From: Candidatus Doudnabacteria bacterium
GTDB lineage: Bacteria; Patescibacteriota; Doudnabacteria; UBA920
Assembly (NCBI GenBank): GCA_963768175.1
Contig: CAVYGQ010000001.1
Coordinates: 574,305 to 638,304, forward strand
Reading direction: 5' to 3'
Length of the DNA stretch: 64,000 nucleotides
Shown: positions 11,072 through 51,223 of the stretch, piece after piece
How positions within the stretch are numbered: the stretch's first letter is position 1
How the letters are laid out: the number at the start of each line of letters is the position of its first letter
The notes under the pieces: model-generated
Databases searched by the model: none
Told to the model about the DNA's origin: nothing
What the model saw: the letters and a program-made list of their open reading frames with translations, nothing else
Made by a program: the position numbers and the translations under genes

Positions 11072-11335
11072 AAAAAACCGCCTATCGGCGGGTTGTAAAA
11101 TTATCTTCCCCGCTCGGGGCTAGAAGTAGCACCTTTCGTATGGGGGTCCCCAAAAATTAGGAGCGCAATTTCCGTAATGCTTTACGGAAATGAGCACGGA
11201 TTTTTGGGGAGAGGAGCAACTGCGGAGAGCTAAGTTTCCGATTTTTATCGGAACGAAAGCTCGAAGCAAGTTGCGACGAGGTTGCTGGCAGGTCATTGGG
11301 CTAGATCCCTCACTGCACTCTTGATAAATTATTTT
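11072..11335 (-). promoter_or_regulatory. SAM-I (S-box) riboswitch with a greatly enlarged P3 region and an intrinsic terminator, in the metK leader
   Basis: Minus-strand RNA contains TTATCAAGAGTGCAGTGAGGGATCTAGCCCAATGACCTGCCAGCAACC and GAAAGGTGCTACTTCTAG core motifs, a P4 hairpin CCCCGAGCGGGG, then the terminator CCGCCGATAGGCGGTTTTTT. Confidence 0.7.
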
Positions 11336-11456
11336 ACCCTGTTAAATGCCGTTACGGCCCTCGCCAAAGGCGAGGATTTAACAGGGTGAATTGTAAAGAC
11401 ATATTAAACTATCTTGAAATTTTTGTCAAAACAAGATAATATTCATTAGAGATTAT

Positions 11457-11520
11457 GCGGGTATCGTATAATGGCAAATCTGGAGCTTTCCAAGCTGATG
11501 CCGAGGGCTTGCCCCGTTAA
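11457..11520 (+). other. degenerate tRNA-like fragment
   Basis: GCGGGTATCGTATAATGG resembles the first 18 nt of the adjacent tRNA-Gly. No valid anticodon stem or T-arm follows. Confidence 0.2.
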
Positions 11521-11527
11521 ACTTTGT

Positions 11528-11601
11528 GCGGGATTAGTATAATGGTAGTACGGCACCCTTCCAAGGTGCATACGCCGGTTCGATTCCGGTATCCCGCTCC
11601 A
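11528..11601 (+). tRNA. tRNA-Gly (anticodon TCC)
   Basis: Acceptor GCGGGAT/ATCCCGC, anticodon stem GCACC/GGTGC with loop CTTCCAA, T-loop GGTTCGATTCC, CCA encoded. Confidence 0.85.
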
Positions 11602-11639
11602 ATGACTTTTGACTTTATAAGTAAAATTAATTTAAAGAC

Positions 11640-12470: not shown

Positions 12471-12565
12471 TAAGTTTTTGGCAATTTCCGTCCGAACATC
12501 ATTCCATAGCCCGCTCCAGGTTTAACGGGGTAAAATTCCCCCTATAACCCGCTCCAAAAAAAGTT

Positions 12566-12595
12566 TAAAAGCCCCCAAGTGGGGGCTTTTTGGCA
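12566..12595. terminator. bidirectional intrinsic terminator
   Basis: AAAAGCCCCCAAGTGGGGGCTTTTTGG, a hairpin flanked by an A-run and a T-run, sitting between convergent genes. Confidence 0.6.
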
Positions 12596-12638
12596 TCCGT
12601 AGGCATCGGTAGATCCGCGTTCAATCCGTAAATCCGTG

Positions 12639-12923
12639 TTACTGCCTAAGCTTAACCGCTTCCTTAAAGGCCTCGCCGGCTTTGAACTTCGGGGTATTGA
12701 GCTCGGGAATAGTTATCTTCTGGGACGGGTTGCGGGGGTTAACGCCAATTCTGGAAGCGCGATGGCTTACGCTAAACTGCCCGAACCCGGAAATATTGAC
12801 TTTATCGCCGCCGCGGAGCACGTCGTAAATCATGCTAATTAAGGTATTGGTAAACCTCTCCGCCTCGGTATGGGTAATGCCCAATTTAGCGGCCAATTGC
12901 TCCGTTAATTGAAGCTTATTCAT
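12639..12923 (-). CDS. hup: DNA-binding protein HU
   Basis: 94 aa; MNKLQLTEQLAAKLGITHTEAERF...GFGQFSV matches the HU/IHF family. Confidence 0.9.
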   Translation of the reverse strand: MNKLQLTEQLAAKLGITHTEAERFTNTLISMIYDVLRGGDKVNISGFGQFSVSHRASRIGVNPRNPSQKITIPELNTPKFKAGEAFKEAVKLRQ

Positions 12924-13154
12924 AAATTTTCCTTCCTTTTCCGCCAGTCGTTCGAGACCCTGAAGGGTTCTCAGACCCTGAACGGGAGGCGGATCCCGCT
13001 TTGCGGGACTGTTTTAATTATTTATTGATGTTAGCTAACTAATTATACGTTAGTTAGCCAAAATTTGGTGCTTTATGCTTAAATCGGCATTATTTACCAA
13101 ATCTAATCATATTATAGACTAATTTCAACAAAAATTCCAGTTATGCCAATAAAA

Positions 13155-13200
13155 ATGAGGACTGTCCTTTTCCGGGCAACCCCTGGTTAAGGACAGTCCT
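13155..13200 (-). terminator. hairpin terminator downstream of the LTD-protein gene
   Basis: 13-bp inverted repeat GAGGACTGTCCTT...AAGGACAGTCCTC followed by a U-run on the minus strand. Confidence 0.5.
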
Positions 13201-13225
13201 CTGCCAAGTTTCTGTTCAGTTAAAA

Positions 13226-14137
13226 TTACTTTTTCGCCTTGGAAAACAAATACTTTTTGGCAATAAACAAAAGCGCTAAAAGCGCCGCCCCAGATAAAAT
13301 TAAATACTTTACCGCCCCCTGTTTGGCGTTTTGGCCCGGGTCGCTTTGCGTTGGGTAAGCAGGCTCCAAGTTTTGATTATCAGATGATAACGATACGGCA
13401 ACGGCTGTCGCCTCCCCCTCCACCTGCCCGGCGTCGGAGGCAGCCGCGGCAACAGCCGGCGCGGTTGTCGCGACTGGCAAATTTTTATTTGCCGCCGCTG
13501 TCTGTTGCGCTCCTGGATTATTTTTTATTACGGCATCCGTTTCCTGGCTGGCCTGGAAAGCCGCGGTTAAATCGTTCATCAAAGAGTTGTGCGGGTTTGA
13601 AGCGGCAATTGAATAATCCGATGAAGGCTGGTATAAATCTTTTCTGGTGAGCGATTGGTTGGCTCCGGGATTAACAATGGAGACATTTCTAAAACCGTTG
13701 CCGGTTTTCCCCCAGGAAATCTTATCAATAATTTTGCCCGTATTGTCCGCGCCAAAACGCAAAGCGATGCCCGTGTTGTCGGAAATGGTGGCCGAGCTTA
13801 CCACATCGGGCTTTACGGCAATTGTTACAAATCCGGAATTGGCCCACAAATAAAAACTCTTGGCCGGAATAAAAGTATCCTTGCTCCAGGATTTTACCAA
13901 AGTGTCGCTGTTGGCGCTGCCCGGGCGTTTGACCAAACGGCAACCTTTTAAACTAACCGGCGAAGAACTGGCGTTAAAAAATTCAATAAAATCATTGTCG
14001 GTATTATTTTTCCCGCCGGTAATTTGGACTTGGGAGATAAAAACGGATATTGGGACAACCGCATTGGCCAGGCAAAATTGCGGCAGAAATATTAGGATAA
14101 TAACCAAATATATTTTTGTTTTTGCCATTTTTGCCAT
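13226..14137 (-). CDS. secreted, membrane-anchored lamin-tail-domain (LTD)-like protein
   Basis: Signal peptide; LTD-like QVQITGG...DFIEFFNASSSPVSLKGCRL; Ala/Pro-rich linker; C-terminal TM anchor. Confidence 0.5.
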   Translation of the reverse strand: MAKMAKTKIYLVIILIFLPQFCLANAVVPISVFISQVQITGGKNNTDNDFIEFFNASSSPVSLKGCRLVKRPGSANSDTLVKSWSKDTFIPAKSFYLWANSGFVTIAVKPDVVSSATISDNTGIALRFGADNTGKIIDKISWGKTGNGFRNVSIVNPGANQSLTRKDLYQPSSDYSIAASNPHNSLMNDLTAAFQASQETDAVIKNNPGAQQTAAANKNLPVATTAPAVAAAASDAGQVEGEATAVAVSLSSDNQNLEPAYPTQSDPGQNAKQGAVKYLILSGAALLALLFIAKKYLFSKAKK

Positions 14138-38888: not shown

Positions 38889-40085
38889 CTACTTCATTTT
38901 CTTTCTAATAAACGCAGGGATGTCCAGCTCGTCTTCATTATTTTCCGAAGGCTGGGGCTGGGGATTGACGATTTCTATAGGCGGGACGGGTTTGGGATTA
39001 AACATCGGCTTGCGGAATTCCGGCGGAGACATTACCGGGGGGGTAGCGGCTTTTGGCTCCTGGATTTTCGGCTTCCTGGATTCATCGTTTAAAACCATAG
39101 CCGCTGGCGTAACCCTTTTGCTACTTTCGTCAAAGCCCGTGGCAATAACCGTAATGCGCACTTCGTCGCTCATGGATTCGTCTATAACCGCGCCGAATTT
39201 GACTTTGGCGTCAGGATCTATATTCTTGGTAATAACCTTGGCGGCTTCGTCTATTTCAAACATGCCCAAGGAACTGCCACCCGTAATGTTAAACAATACA
39301 CCTTTGGCACCGTCTATGGTCATCTCCAGCAAAGGAGAACTAATGGCCGCTCTGGCCGCTTCCTGGGCGCGGTTTTCGCCCGAGGCACGCCCAATACCCA
39401 TTAAGGCGGTACCAGCATCCATCATAATGCTTTTGACGTCGGCAAAGTCGGCATTAACAATGCCATGAGTGGTAATTAAATCGGAAATCCCGGCAATCCC
39501 TTGGCGAAGAACCTCGTCCACGGTTTTGAAAGCATCCACCAAAGAAGTTTTTTTATCTATAATCTGTAAAATCCGATCATTGTGAATGGAAATTATGGCA
39601 TCTACCTTATCTTTTAAGTTATCATAGCCGGTCTCGGCAATTTCTTTTCTCTTGCTGCCTTCAAAAGTAAAAGGCTTGGTAACCACCGCTACGGTTAGAA
39701 CAGATTTGTTCTTGGCCAGCTCCGCCACAATTGGCGCGGCTCCCGTGCCGGTGCCGCCGCCTAGACCGCAGGTAATAAAAATCATATCCGCGTTGTCTAT
39801 AACCTCTTCCAGATCTTCCACGCTCTCTTCGGCCGCCTGCCTGCCCAAATCCGGGTTCATACCGCTACCTAAGCCTTTGGTTGTGCCTTTGCCAATATGG
39901 ACTTTGCGGTCGGCCTGGTTGTTGTGCAAAGCCTGGGCATCGGTATTTATTGAAATGAATTCCACACCCTTTATGCCCAGCTGGGTCATGCGGTTAACGG
40001 CGTTAGTGCCCGAGCCGCCGATGCCCAAAACCTTAATCCTGGCGAAAGTCTCAATTTTGGGTTTGACTTCCATAAATTTTTTCAT
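38889..40085 (-). CDS. ftsZ: cell division GTPase FtsZ
   Basis: [25 protein letters not shown]-terminal DIPAFIRKK peptide. Likely start MKKFMEV. Confidence 0.95.
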
Positions 40086-40301
40086 AGTCTCTGACTTCAG
40101 AATAATAGATAAAAAAAATAAAATCAAGCGCCGGACAACTTATACTGCCTTTTGCGATTGATTTTTGTTTTAACCGCTGTTTTGGCGGTGGTTTTTGCTT
40201 CAAAATGATTATAGCATAACCACGTTATAAGACAAATAATCTATAAATAAAAAAGACCTTTTTAGGTCAAAATTCGGTTGATGGGGCGAAGAAAAAAACA
40301 A

Positions 40302-40336
40302 ATTTAAAAACCCCGTTCCGTTGAACCGGGTTTTTA
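40302..40336. terminator. hairpin AAAAACCCCGTTCCGTTGAACCGGGTTTTT
   Basis: Downstream of the 40472-41674 gene. Confidence 0.4.
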
Positions 40337-40471
40337 AATTGACGGGGAGAGCAGACATGGGCAGTCTGACTCTCCTCGTTGGAGCCCTGCAGCGGGTCGT
40401 TCTATTGGTTGTGTTCTCGGGAAAGATAGGCATTTGGTTCCTCCTAGACCAAATCATCTAGAGCCTAAGAA

Positions 40472-41674
40472 CTACTTGCGAAGACGGATGAATCGGAAAG
40501 ATCGGTTGAAGTGGCTAAAGCCAGCTCCGTGGTAGCCGACAAACCATCCCCCATAATACCAACCAAGGACATACACTTCACGTCCGCTGTCCTCGCTCAA
40601 CGCAATGGTGCGTGGCAGGAGGATAACAACTCCGCCCTTATCAATGTCTGTTCTAAGGTCTGGCGGTATAATGTTCTTACCCTCTTTTTCGGCATCAAGC
40701 ACTAATTTACCGAGGCCAAGACTCCCGATGGCTCCTACCTCTTTTGCTCGTTTAAACATTGTATCGCTGTCAATCGAGTTTTCATCTCCCCGCACCGGGC
40801 AGTATGAAAAGTCAAGATTGGCGAGATTAACACTACTTTCTAGGTCATCAGTTAAGATCTGATGCCCCTTTGCTAGGAGACCGGTGTCTTGGGCACGAAG
40901 CGGTCTGACGATGTTGCCGCCTTGTCTTTCTGTGCTGTTGACTTGTTTCCCTTGTTCCCGAGCTCTCGCCTGTTCGGCAGCCAGTCGTTCCGCCAGTTCT
41001 CTGGCCTTTTGCTCCGCTTCACTATTTCTCTGCTCCAGTTCGGCCTTCTGGCGTTCCAGGTCCTTGGTTCTTTGCTCCAGCTCCGACCTTTGCCGTTGCT
41101 GTTCCAGTTCTTTCTCTCTGGCTTTTTGTTCCTCTTGTTCCCTGATTCTTTGTTGCTCCTCATCTTTGAGCTTCTGTTGCTCCAGCTCTTTCGCCTTTTG
41201 TTCATCCATTTGTTGGATGACCTCCGGCGTGAGTGGAAGAAGCTGGGTGCCGTAGCGAGGGTGAAACTTGTAACCCAAGGGCAGCAGTTCAATCCTGTCG
41301 TCCTGGGCTTTGTAGTAGCGGTACATCGCTTGGCCGGTCATGGGGTTGAAGTAGTGGCCTTGTTTGGGCTGAGCGAGGAAGTACATAATCACCAGCCAGC
41401 TGGAAACGGCCGAGGCGATGATTATTACCTTCTTGGTGGTCCGCCTAAAAAACAGCGCGGACAGGAAGGTGGGGATGAGCAGCATGGTGACCACGGTCAG
41501 CCAGAGGCTGATTGCCCCGTTTAAGGTGTCGGGCAGACCAGCCATGTTTTGGAGGTTTCCGAAGAACCAGGAGTAGATACCCCAGGCCATCAGCAGGTCC
41601 AGCAGCCGGAAAGTCAGGAAAGCACCGGCTGCCAAGGTACCGTAAAACAACCCGCGCTTGACTATGCGGTTCAT
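40472..41674 (-). CDS. multi-TM membrane protein with E/Q/K/R-rich coiled coil and unique C-terminal domain (paralog A)
   Basis: 400 aa. N-terminal ~190 aa is homologous to the 46880-48283 product (YRYYKAQDDRIELLPLGYKFHPRYG vs YRYYKADNGRIELFPLAQKYHRRYG). ELEQQ-type heptads follow. Confidence 0.5.
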   Translation of the reverse strand: MNRIVKRGLFYGTLAAGAFLTFRLLDLLMAWGIYSWFFGNLQNMAGLPDTLNGAISLWLTVVTMLLIPTFLSALFFRRTTKKVIIIASAVSSWLVIMYFLAQPKQGHYFNPMTGQAMYRYYKAQDDRIELLPLGYKFHPRYGTQLLPLTPEVIQQMDEQKAKELEQQKLKDEEQQRIREQEEQKAREKELEQQRQRSELEQRTKDLERQKAELEQRNSEAEQKARELAERLAAEQARAREQGKQVNSTERQGGNIVRPLRAQDTGLLAKGHQILTDDLESSVNLANLDFSYCPVRGDENSIDSDTMFKRAKEVGAIGSLGLGKLVLDAEKEGKNIIPPDLRTDIDKGGVVILLPRTIALSEDSGREVYVLGWYYGGWFVGYHGAGFSHFNRSFRFIRLRK

Positions 41675-41808
41675 TGAGCGTTCCTCTTTCTGTTTGTGGA
41701 ATGTGCTACATCAAGCTTTCGCTTGACTTAATATCATATTCCAACAAAAAAGAGCTGCCAATGACCTCAAAACAAAAAAACGCTTTTTTTATACCTATTT
41801 ATTAAATT

Positions 41809-42150
41809 TCAAACCTTATTATTTTTTCGGCTCATAACTGTCTTTAAAAACTCATGCTCCTTTAAAAATGCGTCTTCCAATGCTTCCGCAAAACCGGGAA
41901 TCTCCGCCGTAATCCGGGTAATCTTCTCTTCCGCAGTTTTTGGATCTTTTAATGCTTCCTGAATTTGTAATTTTTGTTCCGGCGTTGCCATCATTATCAT
42001 GGTATCCAAAACCACATTTTGGTAACGTTCCGAAAGCATGACAAGAGCTTTTTGTTTTTCTTGTTCCGGCAAGTTGTCCAAATTCAAATCCGCCAAAAGC
42101 TCTTTGACTTCGCCTTGCGCATCGGGTTTCCTATTTTTTTGCGTGTCCAT
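41809..42150 (-). CDS. hypothetical protein
   Basis: 113-aa ORF 18 nt downstream of the 970-aa gene. Confidence 0.4.
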   Translation of the reverse strand: MDTQKNRKPDAQGEVKELLADLNLDNLPEQEKQKALVMLSERYQNVVLDTMIMMATPEQKLQIQEALKDPKTAEEKITRITAEIPGFAEALEDAFLKEHEFLKTVMSRKNNKV

Positions 42151-42167
42151 AAGTTAAGTTAGTTATT

Positions 42168-45080
42168 TTATTTTGCTCTCGCTTCCGTCCTTAATTCCGC
42201 GCTGGCAATGTTGCTGGCTTTTTCAAAATATTTTGGCTTTATCCGCTTTAAGCCTTCCATAACTGTTTTCAGATGTTCCGCGTCCTGCTCTTTTTGCCCG
42301 CCCTCTTTTTTTGCCTGCCTGACAGCCGTAATAAAAATTTTATAAATTTGAACTAGCGGGCCAAGAGCTGCGGCTGGATCTTTGTCAATTTCGGGTTTTG
42401 TTTTTTTATAATCTTGTCGTGACAATAATTCCAAAATCTCGTCAATTTGCGAATCGGACAGCAAATTTTTGGCTCTTATTTCCTGCCAAACCTGGCTAGT
42501 CGGATTTAGATATTTCGCCCAGGCTTCTTTGTTGACGCCCAAAGCTCCGGCCTCGGTTTCCAAGGGGTTTTGCTCTTTTGCCGGAGTTTCCAGTTTAACC
42601 TCGGTCTGGATTTTGAGAAACAAGCCCGGTGCTAATTGTCCAAGCTCGTCCAACAAACTACCTGCCTTATCTTTTTCCCTACTAGACAAAACAGTTTTAT
42701 ATAACTCTTTCAATATTTCTATGCTGCCAGATGCGTTATACTTCTCAAAACCTATAATTAAACTGCGTCTGAACTTTTCCGCATCTCTTTCGCCAAAAAG
42801 CGCATTAACCGGACCGCCTGATTTTTCCATTATCAAAAACCATTTATTCAACCTCTGGGTCGGCTTGTTGCCGTTCTCTTCAACTTTTTCGGGTGTAACA
42901 ATTTTTAGCCTGAAAGCCAATGCGCACAAATCCCTCTGCCAACCTTCCAGATTGGGAATTTTGTTGGCCGCTTCCCTTGTCCGCGCTTCATCGGACAAAA
43001 CGACGACTGGTTCTGGCTTAGAAATATTTATCCCAAGATTTATTTCCCCTATATTTAAAGATATAGGAGCTTTAGACTTTTGACGATGCGACCAAATTTT
43101 GCCGTACAATTTTGCCGTTTCCTCTACCGGCGTATTAATGACTTTGGCAATGGGTTTGGCTGCTTTCTCGGCAGTACGCCTAATACGTTCAACCACACCT
43201 CCGCCACCGCCTCCACCGCCTCCACCGCCCCCGCCCGATCCTCCCCCGCCGGCGGTCATTAAAGTTTCTACGGATGAATTTCTTTTTTTATGCAAAACAT
43301 AAGCCGCGCCAAGCGATGAAAGTGCAAGAATTGCCGCCCCAGTCGCTATTACTTTACGCTCTTGCTCATCGGCAGCCAACTGCTCCGCAGTCGGCTTAAC
43401 GGCTTCATGGGCCGCAACGGCAGCGGCATTAGCGCCGGTTTCCGCCGCGTGCTGCGCTCCGGTCTGGGCCGCGGCTTTTATTACCTGCCCTGTTGCCTCA
43501 TGGGCAACGGCAGCAGCCTGTTTTAAGGTTTCCTCTAAAACCGGTACATGCACGCCGTTGGCTTCGGCAATTTTATACAATGCCTCGGCATGATGAAGTT
43601 CAAAGCCCGACTGCATATGGATATCCGGAATGTTTCCATGGATATGATGAAATCCCGGAAAATCGGCCAAACCGTGATGCGCCGTAATTTCAACACTGTT
43701 AAGCGCGGACAGCTGTTTTGTACCTTCATTTATTAATTGGTTACTGGGATGCTGGACGCCATGAGCCACATACCATTCTTTGACCGAATCCCAAACTGTC
43801 TTTTTCATCTGGATTTTCAAATCCACCGCCGCTTGCTGCACAGATTCGTGCGCGGATTTGACGGCTTCGCCAATCGCTCCATGGTTGGCGGCAACAACTT
43901 CCGCATGCCTGCTTATGATTTCTTGAGCCGCTCCGGCGGCATGATGCGCGCCAGTGGCCAAATCCACAATAGCGCCAGCTATCGCTCCGCCAACCGCTCC
44001 GGCCAAAGCCCCATACAAAGCGGCTTTGGCAATCTTGCTTTTATCCTTAGTTAAACCGTATCGCTTTAAGATTTTTTCCAGTTCCAAAAAGGTTTCCTGG
44101 TTTGTCCGTGTTTCCGTACCCGAAAAAGTAGCGCCATGAGCAGGCGCAGCTGTATGGCCATGAGCCTCATGCGTCTGAGCGACAGACACTGGTGCGGTCG
44201 CGTGAGTTGCCGTTTCCGTAGACTGCGAAGGAGGCTGCAACCAAAAACTATCGCGCAAAGCCAAAACTTTTTGTAAACGATTTGCGCCTTCCAAATTCAG
44301 CCATTCTTTCTTTTTTACCAAAACCGCCAAATCCTGCAACTGCCGGTATAAATCAACTTCCTCATTAACCTTGGTTTCCAAACCGTGCTGGTGCAAAGCC
44401 TCGGTGATTGCGATATACCGTTCCACCTGCGCCAACGGCGTTAAATTACTGGCATCTGCCAAAAGCTGCTTATAGGTATCCAAAGATGTAAAACGTTTCT
44501 TTTGTCTATGGCTTTCTCTGGCATATTCCCAAGTTCCTCCAACCGCGGCACCGGCCAAAGCGCCCGCACCAATAGTACCAAAATCAAGAAGTCTTTTTGC
44601 CCCCTCACGCACCACATATCCGGCTACGATTTTGGCCGCCACTCCTCCCGCCGCCAAACCGGCGCCGGATCCCCATTTGGCCGACTGCCAAAACCTGACT
44701 TTTTTCCCAAAAACTTTTTCTTCTTTCACCCGTCTGGTTATTTCTCCCGCATTTTGCCTCACCACCCTTTGCTGCTCGGGTGGTAATTGCTGCGTAGCGG
44801 TATCAACCGCCTGCTCAACCGGATCCCCGGCTTGGGCTTCGGTTTGTCTTTCGGGACCTGCTTCATGATTCTGTCCGGCCTGCCCCTGTTCTTGTGCGCG
44901 CACTCCCCCAGCTGCTACCGCGGGTGCGGCGGATTCAGGAGTTGCCGCAGCGGGCGCTTGGCCGTTTTCCGACGGTAAAGAATCCAAATCTCTGCGCAAT
45001 GCGGCGTTGGCATCAGGAGCTGTTTCGGTAAGCCCGTTATGATGTCTTTCTGCCATAAAATCAAATAAAATATTTCGCAT
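42168..45080 (-). CDS. 970-aa hypothetical protein with glycine-zipper segments, His-rich region and a 17-residue poly-Gly linker
   Basis: Glycine-zipper ALYGALAGAVGGAIAGAIVDLATGA; His-rich HHGLADFPGFHHIHGNIPDIH; linker TAGGGGSGGGGGGGGGGGGGVV. No recognisable catalytic domain. Confidence 0.5.
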   Translation of the reverse strand: MRNILFDFMAERHHNGLTETAPDANAALRRDLDSLPSENGQAPAAATPESAAPAVAAGGVRAQEQGQAGQNHEAGPERQTEAQAGDPVEQAVDTATQQLPPEQQRVVRQNAGEITRRVKEEKVFGKKVRFWQSAKWGSGAGLAAGGVAAKIVAGYVVREGAKRLLDFGTIGAGALAGAAVGGTWEYARESHRQKKRFTSLDTYKQLLADASNLTPLAQVERYIAITEALHQHGLETKVNEEVDLYRQLQDLAVLVKKKEWLNLEGANRLQKVLALRDSFWLQPPSQSTETATHATAPVSVAQTHEAHGHTAAPAHGATFSGTETRTNQETFLELEKILKRYGLTKDKSKIAKAALYGALAGAVGGAIAGAIVDLATGAHHAAGAAQEIISRHAEVVAANHGAIGEAVKSAHESVQQAAVDLKIQMKKTVWDSVKEWYVAHGVQHPSNQLINEGTKQLSALNSVEITAHHGLADFPGFHHIHGNIPDIHMQSGFELHHAEALYKIAEANGVHVPVLEETLKQAAAVAHEATGQVIKAAAQTGAQHAAETGANAAAVAAHEAVKPTAEQLAADEQERKVIATGAAILALSSLGAAYVLHKKRNSSVETLMTAGGGGSGGGGGGGGGGGGGVVERIRRTAEKAAKPIAKVINTPVEETAKLYGKIWSHRQKSKAPISLNIGEINLGINISKPEPVVVLSDEARTREAANKIPNLEGWQRDLCALAFRLKIVTPEKVEENGNKPTQRLNKWFLIMEKSGGPVNALFGERDAEKFRRSLIIGFEKYNASGSIEILKELYKTVLSSREKDKAGSLLDELGQLAPGLFLKIQTEVKLETPAKEQNPLETEAGALGVNKEAWAKYLNPTSQVWQEIRAKNLLSDSQIDEILELLSRQDYKKTKPEIDKDPAAALGPLVQIYKIFITAVRQAKKEGGQKEQDAEHLKTVMEGLKRIKPKYFEKASNIASAELRTEARAK

Positions 45081-45112
45081 ATATTATAGTATTTTTCCCT
45101 TAAAAATGCAAA

Positions 45113-45140
45113 AAACCGAAAGATAAACTTTCGGCTTTGC
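45113..45140 (-). terminator. intrinsic terminator downstream of the 45375-46424 gene
   Basis: CCGAAAGTTTATCTTTCGG hairpin followed by a U-run on the minus strand. Confidence 0.45.
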
Positions 45141-45374
45141 GAACCTTTGCGCCCAATTGCGCAAAAGCTTTACTTCATTTGATGCGTTTGATGTGTTAGC
45201 TTCGCGTGCCGCCATACTCCGCAGCAGTGGGTTTCATTCGGCCCCTTTCGGGACTTCCACATCATCCGTTACAACTGGTTACAACAACCTCTTCCCGCGC
45301 AGCATATGCTATCTTGCTACGCTTGGACAAGGGCACTGCCACCCGGTCAATACCTTCGGCCGGGAGTTACTGCT

Positions 45375-46424
45375 CTAGCTAGTCACCACCGGCGGCTCCC
45401 CTTCGGGATGCTCGATGGCGGCAGCCGGCTCAGCGGCCACTTCCGCAGGCAGCTCGCCCTCTTGGGGCGGCTGTTCAACCGCGGGAGCCGGTTCGGGAGC
45501 CGGTTCCTCGGCCACAGGGGCCGGAGGTTCGGGAGTTCCGCCACCATTCCGCTTCCGTGCCTTCAAAAGCACACGGGCCAATGCCTGATTGGCCGAAATG
45601 TTTTCCGGCGTGTCCGGCAGTTCGGTGGTGGGTTTCGGTTCGGCCGCGGCTGGCGCAGCATTGGCTTCTTCAACGTGAGCTTCTTCAGCCGCGGGAGCGG
45701 CAGCGGGGACTTCAACGTGCTCTACAGCCAAATCGGTCAGGTCGGGCGCGGGAGCCGGGTCTTCATGGTGTTCTTCTGCAGCGGAAACCTCTTCAGCCGG
45801 AGGGACGGGCGGCACTTCTAGGCCAAGACTTCCATCATCTGGGAGCTGCCTACGGCGCCAGCCGATGAAATAACCGATAGGGCCGACAAGTAGGAACAGG
45901 AGCGCCCAGAGCGGGAAGTGATTCTTGTCCTGCTCTTTCTTCAGGTCGTCCTGCGCCGTCTTGAGAGCGGCTTCGGCTCTGTCCGCGCGAGCGCTGGCAG
46001 CAATGAGGGCCTTGTTGAGCTCATCAATCCTGCCTTGCTGGTCAATACACGGCGGGCCATTGGTCGTGGCTGACCGGGAGATAGCCCCCGGGGTGCAGCC
46101 TTTGGACGGGCCAAACTTCGCCTGCTCCGCCGCGATGAACGCGACGTAGGCGGCGCGGTCAGGCCGCGCGTCAGACGGCAGATAGAGCGTCTTGTCCGTC
46201 ATAGTCCGCACCTCATCGGGGCGGATGACGGAACCGTTCTTGTGCTGCAGCTGCGGCACAAGGAAATGCGAGTGCCCGGCGGCTTTGAGAGCCGCACCGG
46301 GTCCGCAGTTGGCCGTCGGAACCGTGAGCAGGTCCGTGGCCATTACAGGTGCCACCGCAAGCATCGTCGCAAAAAAAACCGCGAACGGCTGCCCGAAGCG
46401 CCTTAACATCATCTGAAGAATCAT
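45375..46424 (-). CDS. secreted protein with central TM helix and Ala/Pro/Glu-rich disordered C-terminal tail
   Basis: Ribosome-binding site AGGAGGAG before MILQMMLRRFGQPFAVFFATMLAVAPVMA signal peptide. TM helix FPLWALLFLLVGPIGYFIGW. C-terminal (A/P/E)n. Confidence 0.5.
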   Translation of the reverse strand: MILQMMLRRFGQPFAVFFATMLAVAPVMATDLLTVPTANCGPGAALKAAGHSHFLVPQLQHKNGSVIRPDEVRTMTDKTLYLPSDARPDRAAYVAFIAAEQAKFGPSKGCTPGAISRSATTNGPPCIDQQGRIDELNKALIAASARADRAEAALKTAQDDLKKEQDKNHFPLWALLFLLVGPIGYFIGWRRRQLPDDGSLGLEVPPVPPAEEVSAAEEHHEDPAPAPDLTDLAVEHVEVPAAAPAAEEAHVEEANAAPAAAEPKPTTELPDTPENISANQALARVLLKARKRNGGGTPEPPAPVAEEPAPEPAPAVEQPPQEGELPAEVAAEPAAAIEHPEGEPPVVTS

Positions 46425-46560
46425 CTCACTCCTCCTAGAGCGTGCATGAGTGGCGAGACCCCCACCCAAGCTCTGGAATGTACTGCCAGTCTCGTTAACG
46501 GCTACTATTATTTATATAACAGCCACAAACGAGGCCAAAAGTTGCGTTTGATTTTTGGAT

Positions 46561-46598
46561 ATATATTATAACAAAAAATCCGTCTCTTGTCAATAGCC
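46561..46598 (-). promoter_or_regulatory. consensus sigma70-type promoter (TTGACA-17-TATAAT) for the 45375-46424 gene
   Basis: Minus strand reads TTGACAagagacggattttttgtTATAAT. Confidence 0.5.
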
Positions 46599-46636
46599 AT
46601 ATCCTCTATAAAAATGAGGCTTGACTGTACGGTTTA

Positions 46637-46800
46637 TTAAATGTTCCTCTTTCTCTATTTTCAATCAAGGTTGTCCAGCCGAAGCCGGATCTGTCCACTT
46701 TCCTTTTGGGAAACTGGGCATATTGAGCTTCGTTGTAAAGATTTAAAATGGTGATGAGGGAAGAAGGAACAGCAGGTCTTTCTTCCCCCACGGTTGAACG
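46637..46800. repeat. copy 1 of a ~160-bp repeat (AAGGTTGTCCAGCCGAAGCCGGATCTGTCCACTTTCCTTTTGGGAAA...CCCCCACGGTTGA)
   Basis: About 90% identical to 48284-48440. Confidence 0.7.
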
Positions 46801-46879
46801 GTTTGTAAACAGGCGATCAGATCGTTAGCTTTTCCGGCCATACCAGACAGGCTAATAGAGTTTGTCATAGTCTTGGAGT

Positions 46880-48283
46880 TCATGACCACGTCCCCCTAAG
46901 GCTGATGCGCACTGGCTCAAACTGGCAATGGTGGAAGGTCAGGCCAGTTAGTCCCGGGCTAAGCGGACCGAAAGTGTATTGGACAGTGTAACGGTTCTTA
47001 AGTTTCCGGCAGGGAAATCGTTTACCATTTTTTACAACGACTTCGTCGTAGTATCCGCTGTCGGCAACTACCGGGTAATACTTACCGTCACTGCCAAACA
47101 ATTTGGTCCGTTTGTTGGGGTCGCCGGTTGTCGAGAAGAGATAGTTACCATCGGTACGATATCCGTTCCCAAATTGATGCGAAATGAACCAGGCTGTTAC
47201 AATCGTCTGGGACTTACTGGCTTCCACACTCTCTACCTGCATCAGGATGTCGTCGTCTTGAGAGCTTACTTGGTCGCTGGCTTGGCCGTAAGTGATGGAA
47301 ACCAACTGGTCAGACAGATGGTAATCTTTGGGTCTCATCAAGTAGGAAGGTGTCGCCTGAGGCTTTTTTACAAATGGCCAGCCTCGAGGCCAAATATCAT
47401 GCATAAGCCCGTAAAGGTAAATCGCGCCTAGACCACAGAAAACTACAGCGCCAAGACACATCAGAGTGACAACCTTTGCTCCACTACTTATTTCATCAGC
47501 CTTGCGTTCTAGGTCCCTAGTCTTCTGCTGCAGCTCTGACCGTAGCTGTTCTGATTCTTTGGCTTTCTGGTCAGCCAGCTCCTTGGCTTTCTGTTCCAGC
47601 TCGGCTTTTTGTTGTTCCAGGTCCTTGTTTTTCTGCTCCAGCTCAGACCTCTGCCGTTGCCGTTCCAGCTCTTGTTCTCTGGCTTTCTGTTCCATTAGTT
47701 CCCTGGCTTTTTGTTCTTCCTTGTCCTTGGCCTCTTGCTTGTCCAGCTCCTTGGAGATCACCGTGGTAAGCAGGGGAAGCTCCACGCCATAGCGCCGGTG
47801 ATACTTCTGGGCCAAGGGGAATAGCTCAATCCTACCGTTGTCAGCCTTGTAGTAACGGTACATAGGCTGGCCAAGACGGGAAAAGTGCTCCCCTTCCCTG
47901 GGTTGGGACAAAAAGTACATCCCAACCATAACAACCGAGAGTGAGGCGCAAAGAACCAGCGCCTTCTTAAAGGTGTACCGGAAGAAGATCAGCGAAATTG
48001 CCACGGGCAGGAGCAGGACAGCGGCCACGGTCAGCCAAATGCTGATCGCACCGGTAAGCAGGTCGCCCAACCCGGCAATTTCCTGAACCTTCTGGAAGAT
48101 TGTGCTGAACATCCAGCCGACCATGATCAGGCGGCTGAGCCAGAACACGATGGGGACGCAAAGGATGCCGATAACAACAGCACCCCAAAAACCCACACGG
48201 CCAAGACGCCTTACGAGCCTGACGGCACCGTAAAAAGCGCCTAACAAAACCACGACAAGGACAATCCATGCGTAGTTGTTCAT
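46880..48283 (-). CDS. multi-TM membrane protein with E/Q/K-rich coiled coil, fifth TM and unique C-terminal domain (paralog B)
   Basis: 467 aa. N-terminal region and coiled coil homologous to paralog A; divergent C-terminus. Confidence 0.5.
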   Translation of the reverse strand: MNNYAWIVLVVVLLGAFYGAVRLVRRLGRVGFWGAVVIGILCVPIVFWLSRLIMVGWMFSTIFQKVQEIAGLGDLLTGAISIWLTVAAVLLLPVAISLIFFRYTFKKALVLCASLSVVMVGMYFLSQPREGEHFSRLGQPMYRYYKADNGRIELFPLAQKYHRRYGVELPLLTTVISKELDKQEAKDKEEQKARELMEQKAREQELERQRQRSELEQKNKDLEQQKAELEQKAKELADQKAKESEQLRSELQQKTRDLERKADEISSGAKVVTLMCLGAVVFCGLGAIYLYGLMHDIWPRGWPFVKKPQATPSYLMRPKDYHLSDQLVSITYGQASDQVSSQDDDILMQVESVEASKSQTIVTAWFISHQFGNGYRTDGNYLFSTTGDPNKRTKLFGSDGKYYPVVADSGYYDEVVVKNGKRFPCRKLKNRYTVQYTFGPLSPGLTGLTFHHCQFEPVRISLRGTWS

Positions 48284-48440
48284 TTAAGGTTCCTCTTTCC
48301 ACTTTTCAAGGTTGTCCAGCCGAAGCCGGATCTGTCCACTTTCCTTTTGGGAAAATGTTCATATTGAGCTTCGTTGTAAAAATTAAATGGTGGTGAGGGA
48401 AGAGAGGCTAAGAAACAACCCCCTTCCCCCACGGTTGAGC
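48284..48440. repeat. copy 2 of the ~160-bp repeat, forming the 5' leader of paralog B
   Basis: Begins at the start codon and ribosome-binding site of the 46880-48283 gene. Confidence 0.7.
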
Positions 48441-48507
48441 CTCCATGCGGAGGGCTGTGGTTGGTGACCGGGCGCGATAGAGTTTCATCGCATCGGCCGG
48501 AAGACAG

Positions 48508-48693
48508 TCAGCGCACCTTGGCCGTGACCAACTTTCGCTGGACGGCGAAGACCAGCACCAGGCCGATGAGGTTGAGGACGACGCCGATGAAAAACCACCC
48601 CACCGGGTCCCGTCCTTTGGTTTTCGCAACCCAGGCGGCGACTACGCCGAACAGGATGCAGGTAACCACGTACAATGCGTAAGTACTTGGCAT
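48508..48693 (-). CDS. 61-aa two-TM small membrane protein
   Basis: MPSTYALYVVTCILFGVVAAWVAKTKGRDPVGWFFIGVVLNLIGLVLVFAVQRK. Confidence 0.35.
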   Translation of the reverse strand: MPSTYALYVVTCILFGVVAAWVAKTKGRDPVGWFFIGVVLNLIGLVLVFAVQRKLVTAKVR

Positions 48694-49035
48694 TGAGTTT
48701 ATCCTCTTTCTCTTTCTGAACGTACCGGCTTTAAGGCCGGCTCTGCCCGTATTCCGATGGAATCCGAACATAGTAAGCCCTAAATGTCAAAAATATGGCA
48801 ACCTTTAGTGGACTAATTATAGTATGCCAGAAAATAGCTCTTGTCAATAACGATTATTGGACAATTATCAATCCTAAAATCAAAAAAAACCGAACTATTT
48901 TCAAATAAAAAAGAATGGTCAAAAGAAAAACAGCAGGACGGTGAAGGTAAATACACTTCACGCACCTGCTGTTTAAAAGACTCCCCCCATCGGTGTTCCA
49001 ATTTTGTACGAAACATGAAGGTGAAAAACCCCTAC

Positions 49036-49875
49036 CTACTTGAACAAGCCACGGAGCCAGCTCGGCAGGCTGTCCACCCACCGTGACAATGGGCTGAAAC
49101 CTACCAGTCCCAAGTAGTTGTCTACTTGGTCGTGCGGCAGATTCAGCAAGAAGTCCAACTGCCGGACGTCGCCTTGCAGTTTGTCCTGCACCGCTTGCCA
49201 GAACTGCGGGGCTTTGACTGGGCCAAGATGCTTGAGGTAGGCCTGGACTTTCGGGTTCAGCTCCGGGTCTTGAGCGACCTGCGAAATCAGCAAGGGATCA
49301 GGCTCTGGCCGCTTGGCTTTGTCCGTATTTGCCGGAACGATGTTAGCGAGAAGGTCTAATTCTCGAGAATCGCCTTTCACCATTTCTTCCAGCATGCCGT
49401 CACCGATGCTGGCAACGACCTGGTGGAAGGAGCTCCTCTGTTCTAGGGTCAGAGCAGTGTACCATGCCAGAAATTGTTGACGTTTCTGCGCGTCCTGGAC
49501 GTTTTGTAGCACTGCCTGGACTCGCTGGATTTGCTGCAGGTCTTGGGCCAGAATCTGGGTATTGCGTTGTTTCCTCGTGGATTCCGACTTCTGTTCCTCA
49601 CGGAGGACAACCAGGACTTCCTGTATTACTAAATCCTGGAATTGTTGGAAGGCTGAGTGCCCTCTGAATTTGAGAGTAAACCTGGAAAGCACTTGTCTGG
49701 CGAATTCCAAGTCTTCCTCGTGGTCCAGCAACAGTTGCCTGATGTCTGACGGCAATTGTCTGGTTAGCGCCAAGGCCAAGGGTCTCTTAAACCGGTTGGA
49801 AGCCCAGTCGCTGAAATTTCCGGGTGGCTCTACCCTTTCCCGTACTCCATTCTTTTCATGGGGTGGAGTATGCAT
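49036..49875 (-). CDS. hypothetical Gln/Leu-rich alpha-helical protein
   Basis: 279-aa ORF, no recognised domain. Confidence 0.4.
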   Translation of the reverse strand: MHTPPHEKNGVRERVEPPGNFSDWASNRFKRPLALALTRQLPSDIRQLLLDHEEDLEFARQVLSRFTLKFRGHSAFQQFQDLVIQEVLVVLREEQKSESTRKQRNTQILAQDLQQIQRVQAVLQNVQDAQKRQQFLAWYTALTLEQRSSFHQVVASIGDGMLEEMVKGDSRELDLLANIVPANTDKAKRPEPDPLLISQVAQDPELNPKVQAYLKHLGPVKAPQFWQAVQDKLQGDVRQLDFLLNLPHDQVDNYLGLVGFSPLSRWVDSLPSWLRGLFK

Positions 49876-49975
49876 AACCCCTCCTTTCTAATCTAGGCTA
49901 ACTTTACACCATATCAAAAAACCCGCTTCTAGTCAAGAGAAACGGATTCTTATATTTGTCTTATTTAAAACTTTT

Positions 49976-51223
49976 TTACGGCAAAAACGATTTAAACCAC
50001 TTTCTTACCTTAGCCACGCTTTGGTTGCTTAAGATTCTTTTAATCGCGTCTCCCAAGCTCGCGCCGGAAGGGGAAGCATATTTGTTGCCCCATAAAACCA
50101 ATCCCGCGGCCGTGGCAAAACAGGGATCGTTGACCCGGTCAATAATTGTCGTGACATTTTCCGGCCGGCCCAAAACAGAAGGCAGGCGCAGATGCTTTTT
50201 GGAAAACTCCACCACGCCCGGCAAATTGGCGCCGCCGCCGGTTAAGACAATGCCAGCCGGCAGTTTGCCGTCGCGCTGGATTTTTTTTAGCTCGCTGTTA
50301 ACATAAGCAAAAATTTCCTCCAGCCGCGCTTCAATAATTTCCACCACATATCCGCGTATTGTTGCCTGGTCCTCGTTTTTGTCCAGGCGGGACAAATCTA
50401 TTTCCTCGTTTTTATCCACGGCTTTAAGGTCGCAGTGGCCAAATTGCAGTTTAACTTTTTCCGCGGTTTCAATACTGCACCGCAGGCCAATGGCAATATC
50501 GTTGGTAATGTGGCTGCAGCCCAAGGGCAAAACCGCGGTGTGCAGCAAATCCCCTTCCTCATAAACCGCCATTCCGGTGGTGCCGGCGCCCAAATCCACT
50601 ACGCAGACGCCCAAATCTTTTTGGCGTTTTTTTAACACGCTCTCGGCCGCGGCGCAAGGAGCCAAGACTAAATCTTCTATTTCCAAACCGGCCTGCATAA
50701 TGGCTTTGGTCAGATTTTTTACAAACGGCACGCCGGCTTGGACGATAATCGTGTCCACTTCCAAGCGGATACCGCTCATGCCTAAAGGATCTTTAATGCC
50801 GGTTTGGCCGTCTAAGGTAAAGCTTTTGGGGAAAACATGCAGGACTTCCTTATTGCTGGGAATGGAGATGGCCTGGCTGGCGTCTATGCAGCGGATAATG
50901 TCGTTCTCGGAAATTTCCCCGTCGGCGCGGGAAACGGCAATTACGCCGTGGGACTGCAGCGAGGAAATATGGTTGCCGCCCACCGAAACATTGGCCGAAA
51001 CCACTGGCACTCCGGTCATGCGCTCAACTTTTTCCAGGCCCGAGGATATTGCCGAGACCGCTTCTTCTATGTCCACAATTACGCCGCGGCGCATGCCAAA
51101 ACTGGGCGCTTCGCCGGCGCCGATAATGCTAAAACTGCCAGTTTCCCTATCCAGCTTGGCCTGCACCACGCGCACACTGGCCGTACCTACGTCCACTCCA
51201 ACGATATATCGTTCCTTCGCCAT
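49976..51223 (-). CDS. ftsA: cell division protein FtsA
   Basis: Actin-fold motifs VGVDVGT, VVDLGAGTT, LTGGGANLPG. Confidence 0.9.
   Translation of the reverse strand: MAKERYIVGVDVGTASVRVVQAKLDRETGSFSIIGAGEAPSFGMRRGVIVDIEEAVSAISSGLEKVERMTGVPVVSANVSVGGNHISSLQSHGVIAVSRADGEISENDIIRCIDASQAISIPSNKEVLHVFPKSFTLDGQTGIKDPLGMSGIRLEVDTIIVQAGVPFVKNLTKAIMQAGLEIEDLVLAPCAAAESVLKKRQKDLGVCVVDLGAGTTGMAVYEEGDLLHTAVLPLGCSHITNDIAIGLRCSIETAEKVKLQFGHCDLKAVDKNEEIDLSRLDKNEDQATIRGYVVEIIEARLEEIFAYVNSELKKIQRDGKLPAGIVLTGGGANLPGVVEFSKKHLRLPSVLGRPENVTTIIDRVNDPCFATAAGLVLWGNKYASPSGASLGDAIKRILSNQSVAKVRKWFKSFLP

Follow-up and report, generated by a model that had tools for sequence, protein, structure and literature searches.

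In Candidatus Doudnabacteria, a gene pair between ftsA and ftsZ encodes a 970-amino-acid protein and a 113-amino-acid partner. Both genes are in the 64,000-nucleotide stretch of DNA that we analysed, which we call the window (Table 1). The larger gene is almost certainly real and a member of a new, previously unnamed family. Judging from their sequences, these are large membrane proteins, and among the members that could be placed, the family is restricted to the Patescibacteria (CPR). The large protein and its small partner very probably form a functional unit. Since the two genes are adjacent and usually lie between ftsA and ftsZ, we propose the pair as a candidate scaffold, specific to this lineage, for division or for the envelope.

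Table 1. Features of the gene pair and its upstream region, with positions in the window
Feature	Residues	Position	Strand	Basis or description
113-aa partner gene		41809..42150	-	homologue adjoins the large gene in 17/17 loci; alignment A5
970-aa gene	1-970	42168..45080	-	ORF list, ATG start; 30 homologues and an identical copy in L001
Helical C-terminal extension	841-970	42171..42560	-	missing in most homologues; pLDDT 77-88 for aa 860-970
Conserved helical C-terminal module	690-840	42561..43013	-	BLAST to L006, jackhmmer, 10-member alignment A7
Flexible linker, GGGGSG13	611-628	43197..43250	-	sequence scan; GGGGSGGGGGGGGGGGGG, 17 Gly
Transmembrane (TM) helix	576-597	43290..43355	-	most hydrophobic (KD 1.85-1.9); predicted inward-going, followed by HKKR
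Predicted extracytoplasmic segment	379-575	43356..43946	-	positive-inside pattern; His enrichment
Most conserved domain	418-520	43521..43829	-	alignment A2
His cluster	468-497	43590..43679	-	within the variable loop of the conserved domain; HHGLADFPGFHHIHGNIPDIHMQSGFELHH
Glycine-zipper helix B	353-378	43947..44024	-	G357/G361/G365 invariant; predicted outward-going TM
Conserved N-terminal module	110-280	44241..44753	-	conserved across homologue alignments
N-terminal disordered region, Ala/Pro/Gln/Glu-rich	1-85	44826..45080	-	pLDDT <50 for aa 1-84; predicted cytoplasmic
Terminator-like hairpin (45112-45138), then promoter-like site TTTGCA-18-TATAAT (45083-45112)		45083..45138	-	consensus match
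Upstream 364-aa gene		45375..46469	-	signal peptide, small Cys-containing ectodomain, TM, acidic Pro/Ala/Glu tail

The protein family and its small partner

An exhaustive HMMER search against 1.84 billion representatives revealed the family. It found 30 distant homologues of the 970-aa protein at E ≤ 1e-3, including 20 at E ≤ 1e-10 (best 8e-53), which are 860-1440 aa long and 30-39% identical. The gene pair is also present, identically, in an independent Logan assembly (L001). All of the homologues that could be placed come from metagenome-assembled genomes of Patescibacteria, and their source annotation, where given, is "hypothetical protein." A word-indexed search returned no matches for the full protein, one for an alignment of 21 sequences, and none for the core alignment. 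With the first two queries, low-complexity words probably swamped the list of 8000 candidates; with the core alignment, only 524 candidates were collected and none of them scored. Scanning genome contigs with the single protein gave no match. As patterns for the contig scan, alignments A2 and A3 were too divergent and the 5-sequence alignment A4 succeeded.

Searches of Pfam, NCBIfam, PADLOC, and PDB sequences, and searches with Foldseek, gave no match to the 970-aa protein that passed the threshold. The first-pass annotation of this DNA had reported no catalytic motif, and this held up: we did not recognise any characterised family in these resources or in PHROG. The remote homology searches and structure prediction that it proposed as a check gave no clear match to a characterised family. 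A few candidate matches were set aside. The glycine linker gave artefactual phmmer matches to PDB sequences, among them scFv antibodies and Snf7. DUF3482 (PF11981) scored 22.2 bits against a gathering threshold of 29.2, over aa 167-217 only and in one of 21 members, so we regard it as compositional. We reject phrog_2295 (function unknown; E = 1.4e-6; PHROGs have no curated cut-off) as compositional too, because it was found in just one of 21 family members.

The partner gene begins 17 nt past the stop codon of the large gene (the first-pass annotation gave 18 nt). The earlier annotation described it as "possibly a partner or immunity-like gene" and suggested examining the neighbourhoods of homologues. 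This bore out the first half of the description: a partner homologue is adjacent in every one of 17 loci, and all of these proteins belong to a single homologous family. The second half fits poorly, as the 113-aa protein is soluble, acidic, and helical, with no TM segment, and is conserved family-wide. Its homologues are around 105 aa long and 33-50% identical, so that the partner is about as conserved as the large protein, and there is one copy per locus. The gap to the large gene is 2-27 nt in most loci; the gene order is reversed in L018.

The partner may be related to DUF5663 (PF18908). Three of five aligned partners match this family weakly (best E = 0.0013), and precomputed "weak" matches are available for L002, L011, L012, L013, and L018, but the 113-aa protein from the window has no match at E ≤ 1. 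The literature that we searched has no relevant paper on DUF5663/PF18908, on the divisome of CPR bacteria, or on ftsZ synteny in Saccharibacteria. The 364-aa gene that lies upstream of the pair accompanies it only in closer relatives (N-terminal homologues are upstream in L004/L007, L005, L006, and L008).

Predicted architecture of the 970-aa protein

Sequence comparisons show three conserved modules in the family: an N-terminal glycine-zipper and helical module, a small alpha/beta module that is predicted to face outward, and a helical module at the C-terminal end, which follows a disordered linker of variable sequence. For the protein at full length, the AF2 model is poor overall (mean pLDDT 57). 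Each of the features that the first-pass annotation listed for this 970-aa ORF (glycine zippers, a His cluster, and GGGGSG13) is present, with some corrections that we give below.

The protein begins with a disordered region (aa 1-85) that has no signal peptide and no hydrophobic segment. The conserved N-terminal module combines a basic VFGxK motif, a Gly-zipper hairpin (hairpin A; aa 139-182, LDFGTIGAGALAGAAVGG), and a helical region (AETKRL..Y..); aa 180-235 have pLDDT 81-87 in the full model. Weakly hydrophobic Gly/Ala-zipper segments occur at aa 139-157, 164-182, and 350-378 (ALYGALAGAVGGAIAGAIV). Zipper A is K/R-rich on both flanks, and its G177 is nearly invariant across the 21-member alignment. 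As zipper A is weakly hydrophobic and includes charged residues, it may not span the membrane.

Helix B is more convincing. Its GxxxGxxxG motif (G357, G361, and G365) is invariant in the alignment of 21 family members, so the zipper features reflect more than chance, which supports the original description of a large membrane protein with glycine zippers. In a membrane helix, this motif is typical of helix-helix packing or oligomerisation. The pattern (G/A/S)xxxGxxxG of transmembrane glycine zippers is conserved among homologues in the predicted membrane helix. Helix B is likely to be a homo-oligomerisation interface, going by its sequence. None of the Pfam Gly-zipper families match the 970-aa protein.

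We predict that the N-terminus is inside the cell, that helix B runs outward, that aa 379-575 are outside, and that the TM helix returns to the cytoplasm. This topology is probably correct; it was derived entirely from hydropathy and from the positive-inside rule. Our scan detects each of the two helices in 15 of 21 members. In these, helix B has 3-7 K+R before it and 0-2 after it (6 and 0 in the window protein), and the TM helix has 1-4 before it and 3-7 after it (3 and 3 in the window protein). About 75% of the 970-aa protein would be cytoplasmic.

Between zipper B and the TM helix lies an acidic segment that is rich in histidine, and it is predicted to form a compact alpha/beta domain between two Ala-rich helices. 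It has 19 His (9.6% of residues, versus 1.8% in the rest of the protein), and most homologues show His enrichment of the same compartment. Within it, aa 418-520 follow the pattern K.VW.TVK.Y..HG..PSN..INEA...I...N.VEITGHH, then a variable loop, then D..MQ.G..L.GF.KL..L...AGG. The predicted fold is beta-alpha-alpha-beta-loop-beta-beta-alpha (AF2 pLDDT 79 and pTM 0.74 on its own; pLDDT of 90 or more in the full model), and it has no match in the PDB. The motif VW.TVK.Y..HG...N..I and the beta-alpha-alpha-beta order had led us to consider a LysM-like peptidoglycan-binding domain, but no fold or profile matched.

The first-pass annotation proposed that a His-rich block could bind metal. The cluster itself (HHGLADFPGFHHIHGNIPDIH...HH) has 9 His in 30 residues, out of 33 in the whole protein. 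It sits in a loop that varies in length and is His-free or absent in some members, so this exact cluster is not a family trait. Because the His enrichment of the wider segment is family-wide, a His-rich block may still matter.

The glycine run was said to follow the TM segment immediately. The run is there, but it begins 13 residues past the TM helix. It is coded by mixed GGN codons, including a 9-nt tandem repeat (3.8 copies). Homologues have acidic or low-complexity linkers at this place, so the poly-Gly is the local form of a variable disordered linker that is common to the family. The region C-terminal to the run is 342 aa long (rather than about 300, as first estimated). It includes the conserved C-terminal module, which is kept in at least 10 members, has the motif LEGW...RLNKWFL..E.SGGP..., is predicted to be cytoplasmic, and has pLDDT 72-86 and no PDB match. 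Most homologues stop directly after this module, with a Lys-rich tail.

Genomic context and possible roles

The junction between ftsA and ftsZ is normally uninterrupted. The pair lies within 6 kb upstream of ftsZ in 11 distinct loci (the window, L002-L006, L008, L009, L012, L015, and L016), and it lies between ftsA and ftsZ in all six of these where ftsA is on the contig. Its neighbours in the window are ftsA, ftsZ, nrdR, a class II ribonucleotide reductase (RNR), yqeY, hisS, and lepB. This placement is limited to one clade that is syntenic throughout (Der-LytR-LepB-HisRS-YqeY-FtsA...FtsZ-NrdR-RNR), so the linkage could be simple descent. In four lineages the pair is elsewhere (L011, L013, L017, where it is between RF1/L31 and S2/EF-Ts, and L018). 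The promoter-like site ends 2 nt before the ATG of the large gene, which has no Shine-Dalgarno sequence, and a separate promoter of the extended -10 type is conserved at ftsZ. Given these two sites and the upstream terminator, co-transcription with ftsZ is not implied.

Other neighbours vary. The homologue P0017 carries a PP2C_2 domain fused at its N-terminal end (37 bits; cut-off 24), and in L018 a PP2C_2 gene adjoins the pair. In L010 and L011, cell-wall genes with SLT domains adjoin the pair. We considered whether the SLT genes indicate a type IV secretion system, but neither VirB4 nor VirB6 is nearby, and a paper on type IV secretion in Patescibacteria (10.1101/2025.01.22.634366) mentions nothing similar.

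Our best explanation for the whole, which we offer tentatively, is that the large protein is an oligomeric transmembrane scaffold or coupler that works with the small partner and, in this clade, is tied to the FtsA/FtsZ machinery. It would oligomerise in the membrane via its glycine zippers, and the oligomer would act as the scaffold or coupler. The His-rich outer domain might contact a ligand from the envelope or the environment (a metal ion, or in a pH-dependent way). The tethered cytoplasmic arms would bring in the small partner, and in this clade also parts of the FtsA/FtsZ division machinery, and the scaffold may be controlled by a Ser/Thr phosphatase (PP2C). Such a scaffold role, at the division site or in the envelope, is possible, if rather doubtful.

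Binding to FtsZ or FtsA and localisation to the septum are a candidate role that gene position suggests. The order of TM helix, variable disordered linker, and folded cytoplasmic module fits the plan of ZipA-type tethers. A more specific proposal, which we consider to be distinctly unlikely, is that the large protein, together with its DUF5663-like partner, belongs to the divisome as a previously unrecognised component specific to Patescibacteria: the module on the linker would tether or regulate the Z-ring, and the His-rich outer domain would sense a cue from outside the cell (metal, pH, or host surface) to which division is coupled, under PP2C-type phospho-control. If true, the few known membrane partners of bacterial FtsZ would gain a two-protein module with a new fold, in organisms whose division is essentially unstudied.

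The pair could instead be an envelope or surface module that is unrelated to division, such as a membrane sensor or transducer, or a protein for metal handling or host contact, with the His-rich outer domain as its working part. The location between ftsA and ftsZ would then be no more than a matter of inheritance within a clade, at a recombination-prone hypervariable island with highly conserved genes on its flanks. The interval is indeed hypervariable and is full of unrelated ORFans: flanking genes are 71-96% identical to those of the closest relative (L004), while the large protein aligns over 58% of its length at around 29% identity. For four of the island genes, none of the related loci has a homologue. 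The island also holds duplications and a truncated paralogue remnant. (The repeats are duplications of paralogues or leaders, not TR/VR pairs, so we rejected DGR-type diversification.) The non-division contexts in the four other lineages, the family-wide His enrichment of the outer segment, the adjoining SLT-domain genes, and the separate ftsZ promoter all favour an envelope module as well. However, the predicted outward core is the most conserved domain and most of the divergence is in disordered cytoplasmic linkers, whereas a surface antigen under diversification would be expected to show another pattern. Most of the protein is predicted to be cytoplasmic, and the pair stays directly upstream of ftsZ even in genomes whose HisRS or LepB are just ~50-60% identical. 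On balance, we consider a pure envelope role unlikely.

The first-pass annotation compared the protein to membrane-inserting effectors and to phage tape-measure proteins, and neither comparison survived. Glycine zippers do occur in pore-forming proteins, the small gene follows tightly, and no housekeeping function is known, all of which speaks for a toxin with a downstream immunity protein. But there is no signal peptide, Pfam and NCBIfam show no LXG, WXG, Rhs, PAAR, or other trafficking domain, and PADLOC has no match. The C-terminal module is conserved in those 10 or more members rather than polymorphic, the small protein has no TM segment and is kept once per locus across the family, and the gene has a fixed place on the chromosome that is passed on vertically, so a toxin is very improbable. 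A tape-measure protein or prophage remnant would account for a long, helical, Ala/Gly-rich protein, for the single weak PHROG match, and for BFVD tape-measure matches at E = 0.2-1. These matches are noise (BFVD Foldseek E ≥ 0.15, with TM-scores of ~0.06), and the PHROG match is confined to that one member. There is no match to a Pfam tape-measure model, no phage gene among the neighbours, which are housekeeping genes, and no relative in 2.9 million viral contigs, and the pair occupies the same chromosomal locus in 11 genomes. This reading is effectively refuted.

Patescibacteria are tiny epibionts that make up a large share of bacterial diversity, and to our knowledge, almost nothing is known about their division and envelope organisation. 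We have defined a strictly co-inherited gene pair whose larger product has no relative in Pfam, NCBIfam, or PDB. This co-inheritance, the novelty, and the position at the ftsA-ftsZ junction in one clade make the pair a concrete candidate for a lineage-specific division or envelope factor. If the module has no role in division, then it is one more conserved family of hypothetical membrane proteins, of modest interest. A hypervariable island that is bounded by very conserved genes is also relevant to the evolution of CPR genomes.

Comparison with known systems

The invariant G357-x3-G361-x3-G365 in a predicted membrane helix places the window protein in the class of transmembrane glycine zippers, with which tight homo-oligomeric packing of helices is associated. 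This is a motif class and not a family, and it says nothing about function. The partner resembles DUF5663 proteins in its size (~100 aa) and in the weak matches from several loci, but DUF5663 is an uncharacterised family and the window partner does not itself match it. Phage tape-measure proteins share the length, the helical content, and the Gly/Ala-rich segments; they differ in genomic context, they are not homologous, and the family is absent from viral contigs and has a TM topology with a conserved globular ectodomain.

We compared the large protein to membrane proteins of the Z-ring. Models for ZipA_C, EzrA, and other tethers or regulators (MapZ and SepF) have no match in the Pfam and NCBIfam searches, nor in the Foldseek search of the PDB. 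SpoIIE, the membrane PP2C phosphatase of Bacillus that binds FtsZ, is a polytopic membrane protein that unites a PP2C domain with the septum, and P0017 similarly has an N-terminal PP2C_2 domain. But SpoIIE has 10 TM helices and its PP2C domain is C-terminal, the window protein has no PP2C domain, and there is no homology to the family beyond the PP2C domain of one member.

Like MapZ/LocZ and EzrA, which are associated with FtsZ, the window protein is a lineage-specific membrane protein; for the window protein, such an association is a proposal. Streptococcal MapZ, which marks the division site, has a disordered cytoplasmic N-terminal region, a TM helix, and an extracellular domain, and a Ser/Thr kinase acts on it together with a PP2C phosphatase to control it. 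The fused or adjacent PP2C in two lineages of our family is a parallel. In contrast to MapZ and EzrA, with which it shares no homology, both termini of the window protein are predicted to be cytoplasmic.

The closest analogy in architecture may be to ZipA, the gammaproteobacterial membrane tether of the Z-ring, whose gene is part of the division machinery and whose sequence is poorly conserved outside of its folded domain. In both proteins, a long flexible linker would join a membrane anchor to a C-terminal domain that is folded and cytoplasmic, although we detected no similarity of sequence or fold. ZipA is bitopic, with an N-terminal TM helix and no ectodomain, whereas the window protein is predicted to cross or enter the membrane with 2-4 helices and to have an outer domain as well as a large cytoplasmic arm at its N-terminus, and its small partner appears to be obligate.

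The 970-aa protein and its small partner

Our own translation scan of the 970-aa protein bore out each sequence feature listed in the first-pass annotation: Gly/Ala-zipper segments (aa 139-157, 164-182, and 350-378), a clearly hydrophobic helix (TM, aa 576-597), 33 histidines with a cluster at aa 468-497, a GGGGSG13 run (aa 611-628) that follows the TM helix at a spacing of 13 residues, and a C-terminal region of 342 aa. The glycine run is encoded by mixed GGN codons with a 9-nt tandem repeat, and an independent assembly carries an identical gene pair.

The protein had no matches above threshold in Pfam, NCBIfam, or PADLOC. We rejected the sole Pfam match (DUF3482, 22 bits versus a cut-off of 29), which spans one glycine zipper, and the PDB sequence matches, which were Gly-linker artefacts. 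A single weak PHROGs match (phrog_2295, of unknown function) was found for only this one of 21 family members, so we consider it compositional. A word-indexed search of 5.8 billion proteins missed the family; an exhaustive HMMER search, run against 1.84 billion cluster representatives, recovered 30 proteins with E ≤ 1e-3 (20 at ≤ 1e-10, best 8e-53). These relatives are 30-39% identical and mostly 860-1440 aa long, and sources that name them call them "hypothetical protein." The related loci are from MAGs labelled Candidatus Saccharibacteria or Candidatus Doudnabacteria, which places the organism in the Patescibacteria (CPR).

Alignments revealed three conserved modules (see the table). In module (ii), G357, G361, and G365 of zipper helix B are invariant, and the best-conserved domain has the pattern K.VW.TVK.Y..HG..PSN..INEA...I...N.VEITGHH, a variable loop, and D..MQ.G..L.GF.KL..L...AGG. 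Module (iii) lies at the extreme C-terminus in most members; in the query, another 130 aa of helical extension come after it. The linker that joins the TM helix to module (iii) is variable and of low complexity in every member, and the poly-Gly run is this genome's form of it.

We collected 17 distinct loci with a family member (listed as the window, L002-L006, L008-L013, and L015-L018). A homologue of the 113-aa protein (~101-123 aa) adjoins the large gene in all 17, immediately downstream in 16 and immediately upstream in L018. It is acidic and helical, lacks a TM segment, and weakly matches DUF5663. The pair is close upstream of ftsZ in 11 loci: directly (76-312 nt) in L002, L003, L005, L009, L012, and L016, and with other genes inserted in between in the window, L004, L006, L008, and L015. 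Wherever the contig includes ftsA (the window, L002, L004, L005, L009, and L015), the pair is in the ftsA-ftsZ interval. It is located elsewhere in L011, L013, L017, and L018, and L010 is too short to place it relative to ftsZ. Since the partner always adjoins and the location varies, the invariant unit is a two-gene module; the ftsA-ftsZ location is a trait of one clade in which the whole neighbourhood is syntenic.

These comparisons show that this is a real gene, and that the family to which it belongs is new and CPR-restricted. Conserved in it are the glycine zippers, a small domain within a His-rich stretch, and a C-terminal module that follows a variable linker; the small partner is obligate. 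Neither the family nor its association with a DUF5663-like protein appears to have been described: the literature that we searched had nothing on either, and no family model covers the family. Many conserved hypotheticals of this kind are found in CPR genomes.

Features of the window and of related loci (L numbers); modules are in residues of the 970-aa protein
Feature	Location	Strand	Remarks
970-aa gene	42168..45080	-	ATG start
113-aa gene	41809..42150	-	Starts 17 nt after the 970-aa gene
ftsA	49976..51223	-	TIGR01174, E 1e-111
ftsZ	38889..40127	-	TIGR00065, E 2e-121
ftsA-ftsZ island	40128-49975		~9.8 kb
400-aa gene	40472-41674	-	
467-aa gene	46880-48283	-	
364-aa gene	45375-46469	-	63.5% GC, GC3 0.67 (region ~46% GC)
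5' remnant	~46590-46780	-	Third 400/467-aa paralogue
Terminator-like hairpin	45112-45138		Precedes the 970-aa gene
Promoter-like site	45083-45112	-	TATAAT ends 2 nt before the ATG
Gap between the pair	42151-42167		No Shine-Dalgarno sequence
Sigma-70-like promoter	46565-46593		Perfect consensus
SAM riboswitch	11098-11330	-	RF00162, 51 bits
ftsZ leader elements	L003 4551-4669; L005 12738-12916; L002 12929-13121; L012 4675-4843; window ~40208-40235		
P0017	L013 2656-5763		Homologue; N-terminal PP2C_2 at aa 50-262, 37 bits (cut-off 24)
PP2C_2 gene	L018 4187-5998		Next to the family member
SLT-domain proteins	L010 771-3572; L011 5974-8376		Large (lytic transglycosylase); encoded divergently, two genes upstream of the pair
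23S_rRNA_IVP/bAvd gene	L012 6044-6436		Directly after ftsZ
L015 ftsA-ftsZ island	8105-13434		Six more genes after the pair, one with a T4SS_pilin domain
Module (i)	aa ~110-280		Basic motif, Gly-zipper hairpin A (LDFGTxGAGALAGAAVGG), helical stretch
Module (ii)	aa ~325-520		Basic segment, zipper helix B, best-conserved domain
Module (iii)	aa 690-840		Helical, LGLE.W...RLNKF.L...E.GG...

Topology and the His-rich segment

We scanned hydropathy and counted K+R in the 15 residues on either side of each helix; each helix was detected in 15 of 21 members. Zipper B has 3-7 basic residues before it and 0-2 after it (6 and 0 in the query), and the TM helix has 1-4 before and 3-7 after (3 and 3). By the positive-inside rule, aa 379-575 would face outward and both large arms would be cytoplasmic. 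Zipper A, which has basic residues on either side, would be a hairpin or re-entrant element. We regard as probable an in-out-in arrangement in which the His-rich domain faces outward.

The predicted outward segment is acidic and strikingly rich in histidine (9.6% in the query versus 1.8% elsewhere; in most homologues, 4-12.6% versus 0.3-2%). Because most homologues share this enrichment, the histidine block, initially singled out as a possible metal site, is part of a family-wide, compartment-specific feature, but the exact cluster is in a length-variable loop that is His-free in some members.

With the 21-sequence alignment, AlphaFold2 gave a poor full-length model (mean pLDDT 57, 461 residues below 50). 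Its confident regions are helical (aa 180-235, 330-360, 750-830, and 860-970), and the domain at aa 420-510 is very confident (pLDDT 90+). Modelled alone, this domain has pLDDT 79 and pTM 0.74, with a beta-alpha-alpha-beta-loop-beta-beta-alpha arrangement.

The ftsA-ftsZ island and its signals

The large gene is chromosomal and no phage genes surround it; farther neighbours in the window include nrdR, class II ribonucleotide reductase, yqeY, hisS, lepB, a LytR-family gene, der, comEC, and three tRNAs. ftsA and ftsZ are normally adjacent. Here, seven genes without family assignment part them, all on the same strand (from ftsA: 279, 87, 467, 364, 970, 113, and 400 aa).

Compared with the closest relative, L004, the flanking proteins share 71-96% identity across their full length (FtsZ 93%, FtsA 90%), versus 29% across 58% of the length for the 970-aa protein, 38% for the partner, and 39% across 30% for the 364-aa protein. 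The 400-, 467-, 279-, and 87-aa genes had no counterpart in any related locus. Much of the large protein's divergence is in disordered parts, and its most conserved part is the outward domain. GC3 is 0.45 and 0.43 for the pair, slightly below the flanks (0.49-0.60), and 0.61-0.73 for the other island genes. The 400-aa protein is a paralogue of the 467-aa one, with 50% identity across their N-terminal ~236 aa. Because its genes are at most 39% identical or lack homologues, and because of these paralogues, a remnant, and differing GC3, we conclude that the interval is a mosaic, fast-changing island. It looks like a hypervariable hotspot between conserved genes.

We also note that the two paralogues, which are membrane and coiled-coil proteins, bracket the 364-, 970-, and 113-aa genes. 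The remnant has an 82-nt leader that is 94% identical to that of the 467-aa gene, next come a Shine-Dalgarno sequence and a start region that resembles the 400-aa gene's but has ATA in place of ATG; the sigma-70-like promoter is just downstream. The 364-aa product combines a signal peptide and a single TM with a small ectodomain that contains Cys and a long, acidic tail rich in Pro/Ala/Glu; its N-terminal part is kept upstream of the pair in closer relatives. In L015, a faintly PaaX_M/Cas2-like gene precedes the pair. The 23S_rRNA_IVP/bAvd domains near the L012 family member are the accessory protein type of diversity-generating retroelements (DGRs); in the window's own island we saw no repeats of DGR type. 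The SLT-domain proteins are from two distant lineages.

Promoters and terminators were called as consensus matches only. Neither gene of the pair is preceded by a Shine-Dalgarno sequence; the neighbouring 400-aa gene has one (AAGAGGA). Because the TATAAT box is so close to the ATG, the large gene's transcript may be leaderless, or translation may start at a downstream Met. Downstream of the partner gene, the long leader of ftsZ in related loci carries a conserved extended -10 element of its own that resembles a promoter (TGTGCTATAAT), as well as a conserved hairpin (ATCGCCAAAATAGCGGT); this leader may be a regulatory 5'UTR. Co-transcription of the pair with ftsZ therefore cannot be assumed.

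Possible roles

The first-pass annotation had pointed to glycine-zipper-rich giants among membrane-inserting effectors and phage tape-measure proteins, and to a possible partner or immunity-like role for the small gene. The pair lacks the defining features of a toxin/immunity system, which makes that reading very improbable, and the tape-measure reading, which also lacks its defining features and has no phage genes in its setting, is more improbable still.

Tentatively, we see the protein as a candidate membrane-spanning scaffold or coupler that would act at the division site or in the envelope. It would oligomerise via its glycine zippers, and its linker-tethered cytoplasmic modules would recruit its small partner and perhaps FtsZ/FtsA. 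The PP2C_2 fusion in P0017 and the adjacent PP2C_2 gene in L018 are two independent links that hint at phospho-regulation; PP2C control is possible. The main rival, which we rate as slightly less probable, is that a protein of this anatomy has an envelope, metal, or host-contact role unrelated to division; descent in a recombination-prone island would then explain the position between ftsA and ftsZ.

We place the protein among lineage-specific division or envelope membrane scaffolds, as a candidate; a divisome role, if demonstrated, would make the family of greater interest. The plan of such a scaffold, with linker-tethered cytoplasmic modules, is reminiscent of ZipA, EzrA, and MapZ.
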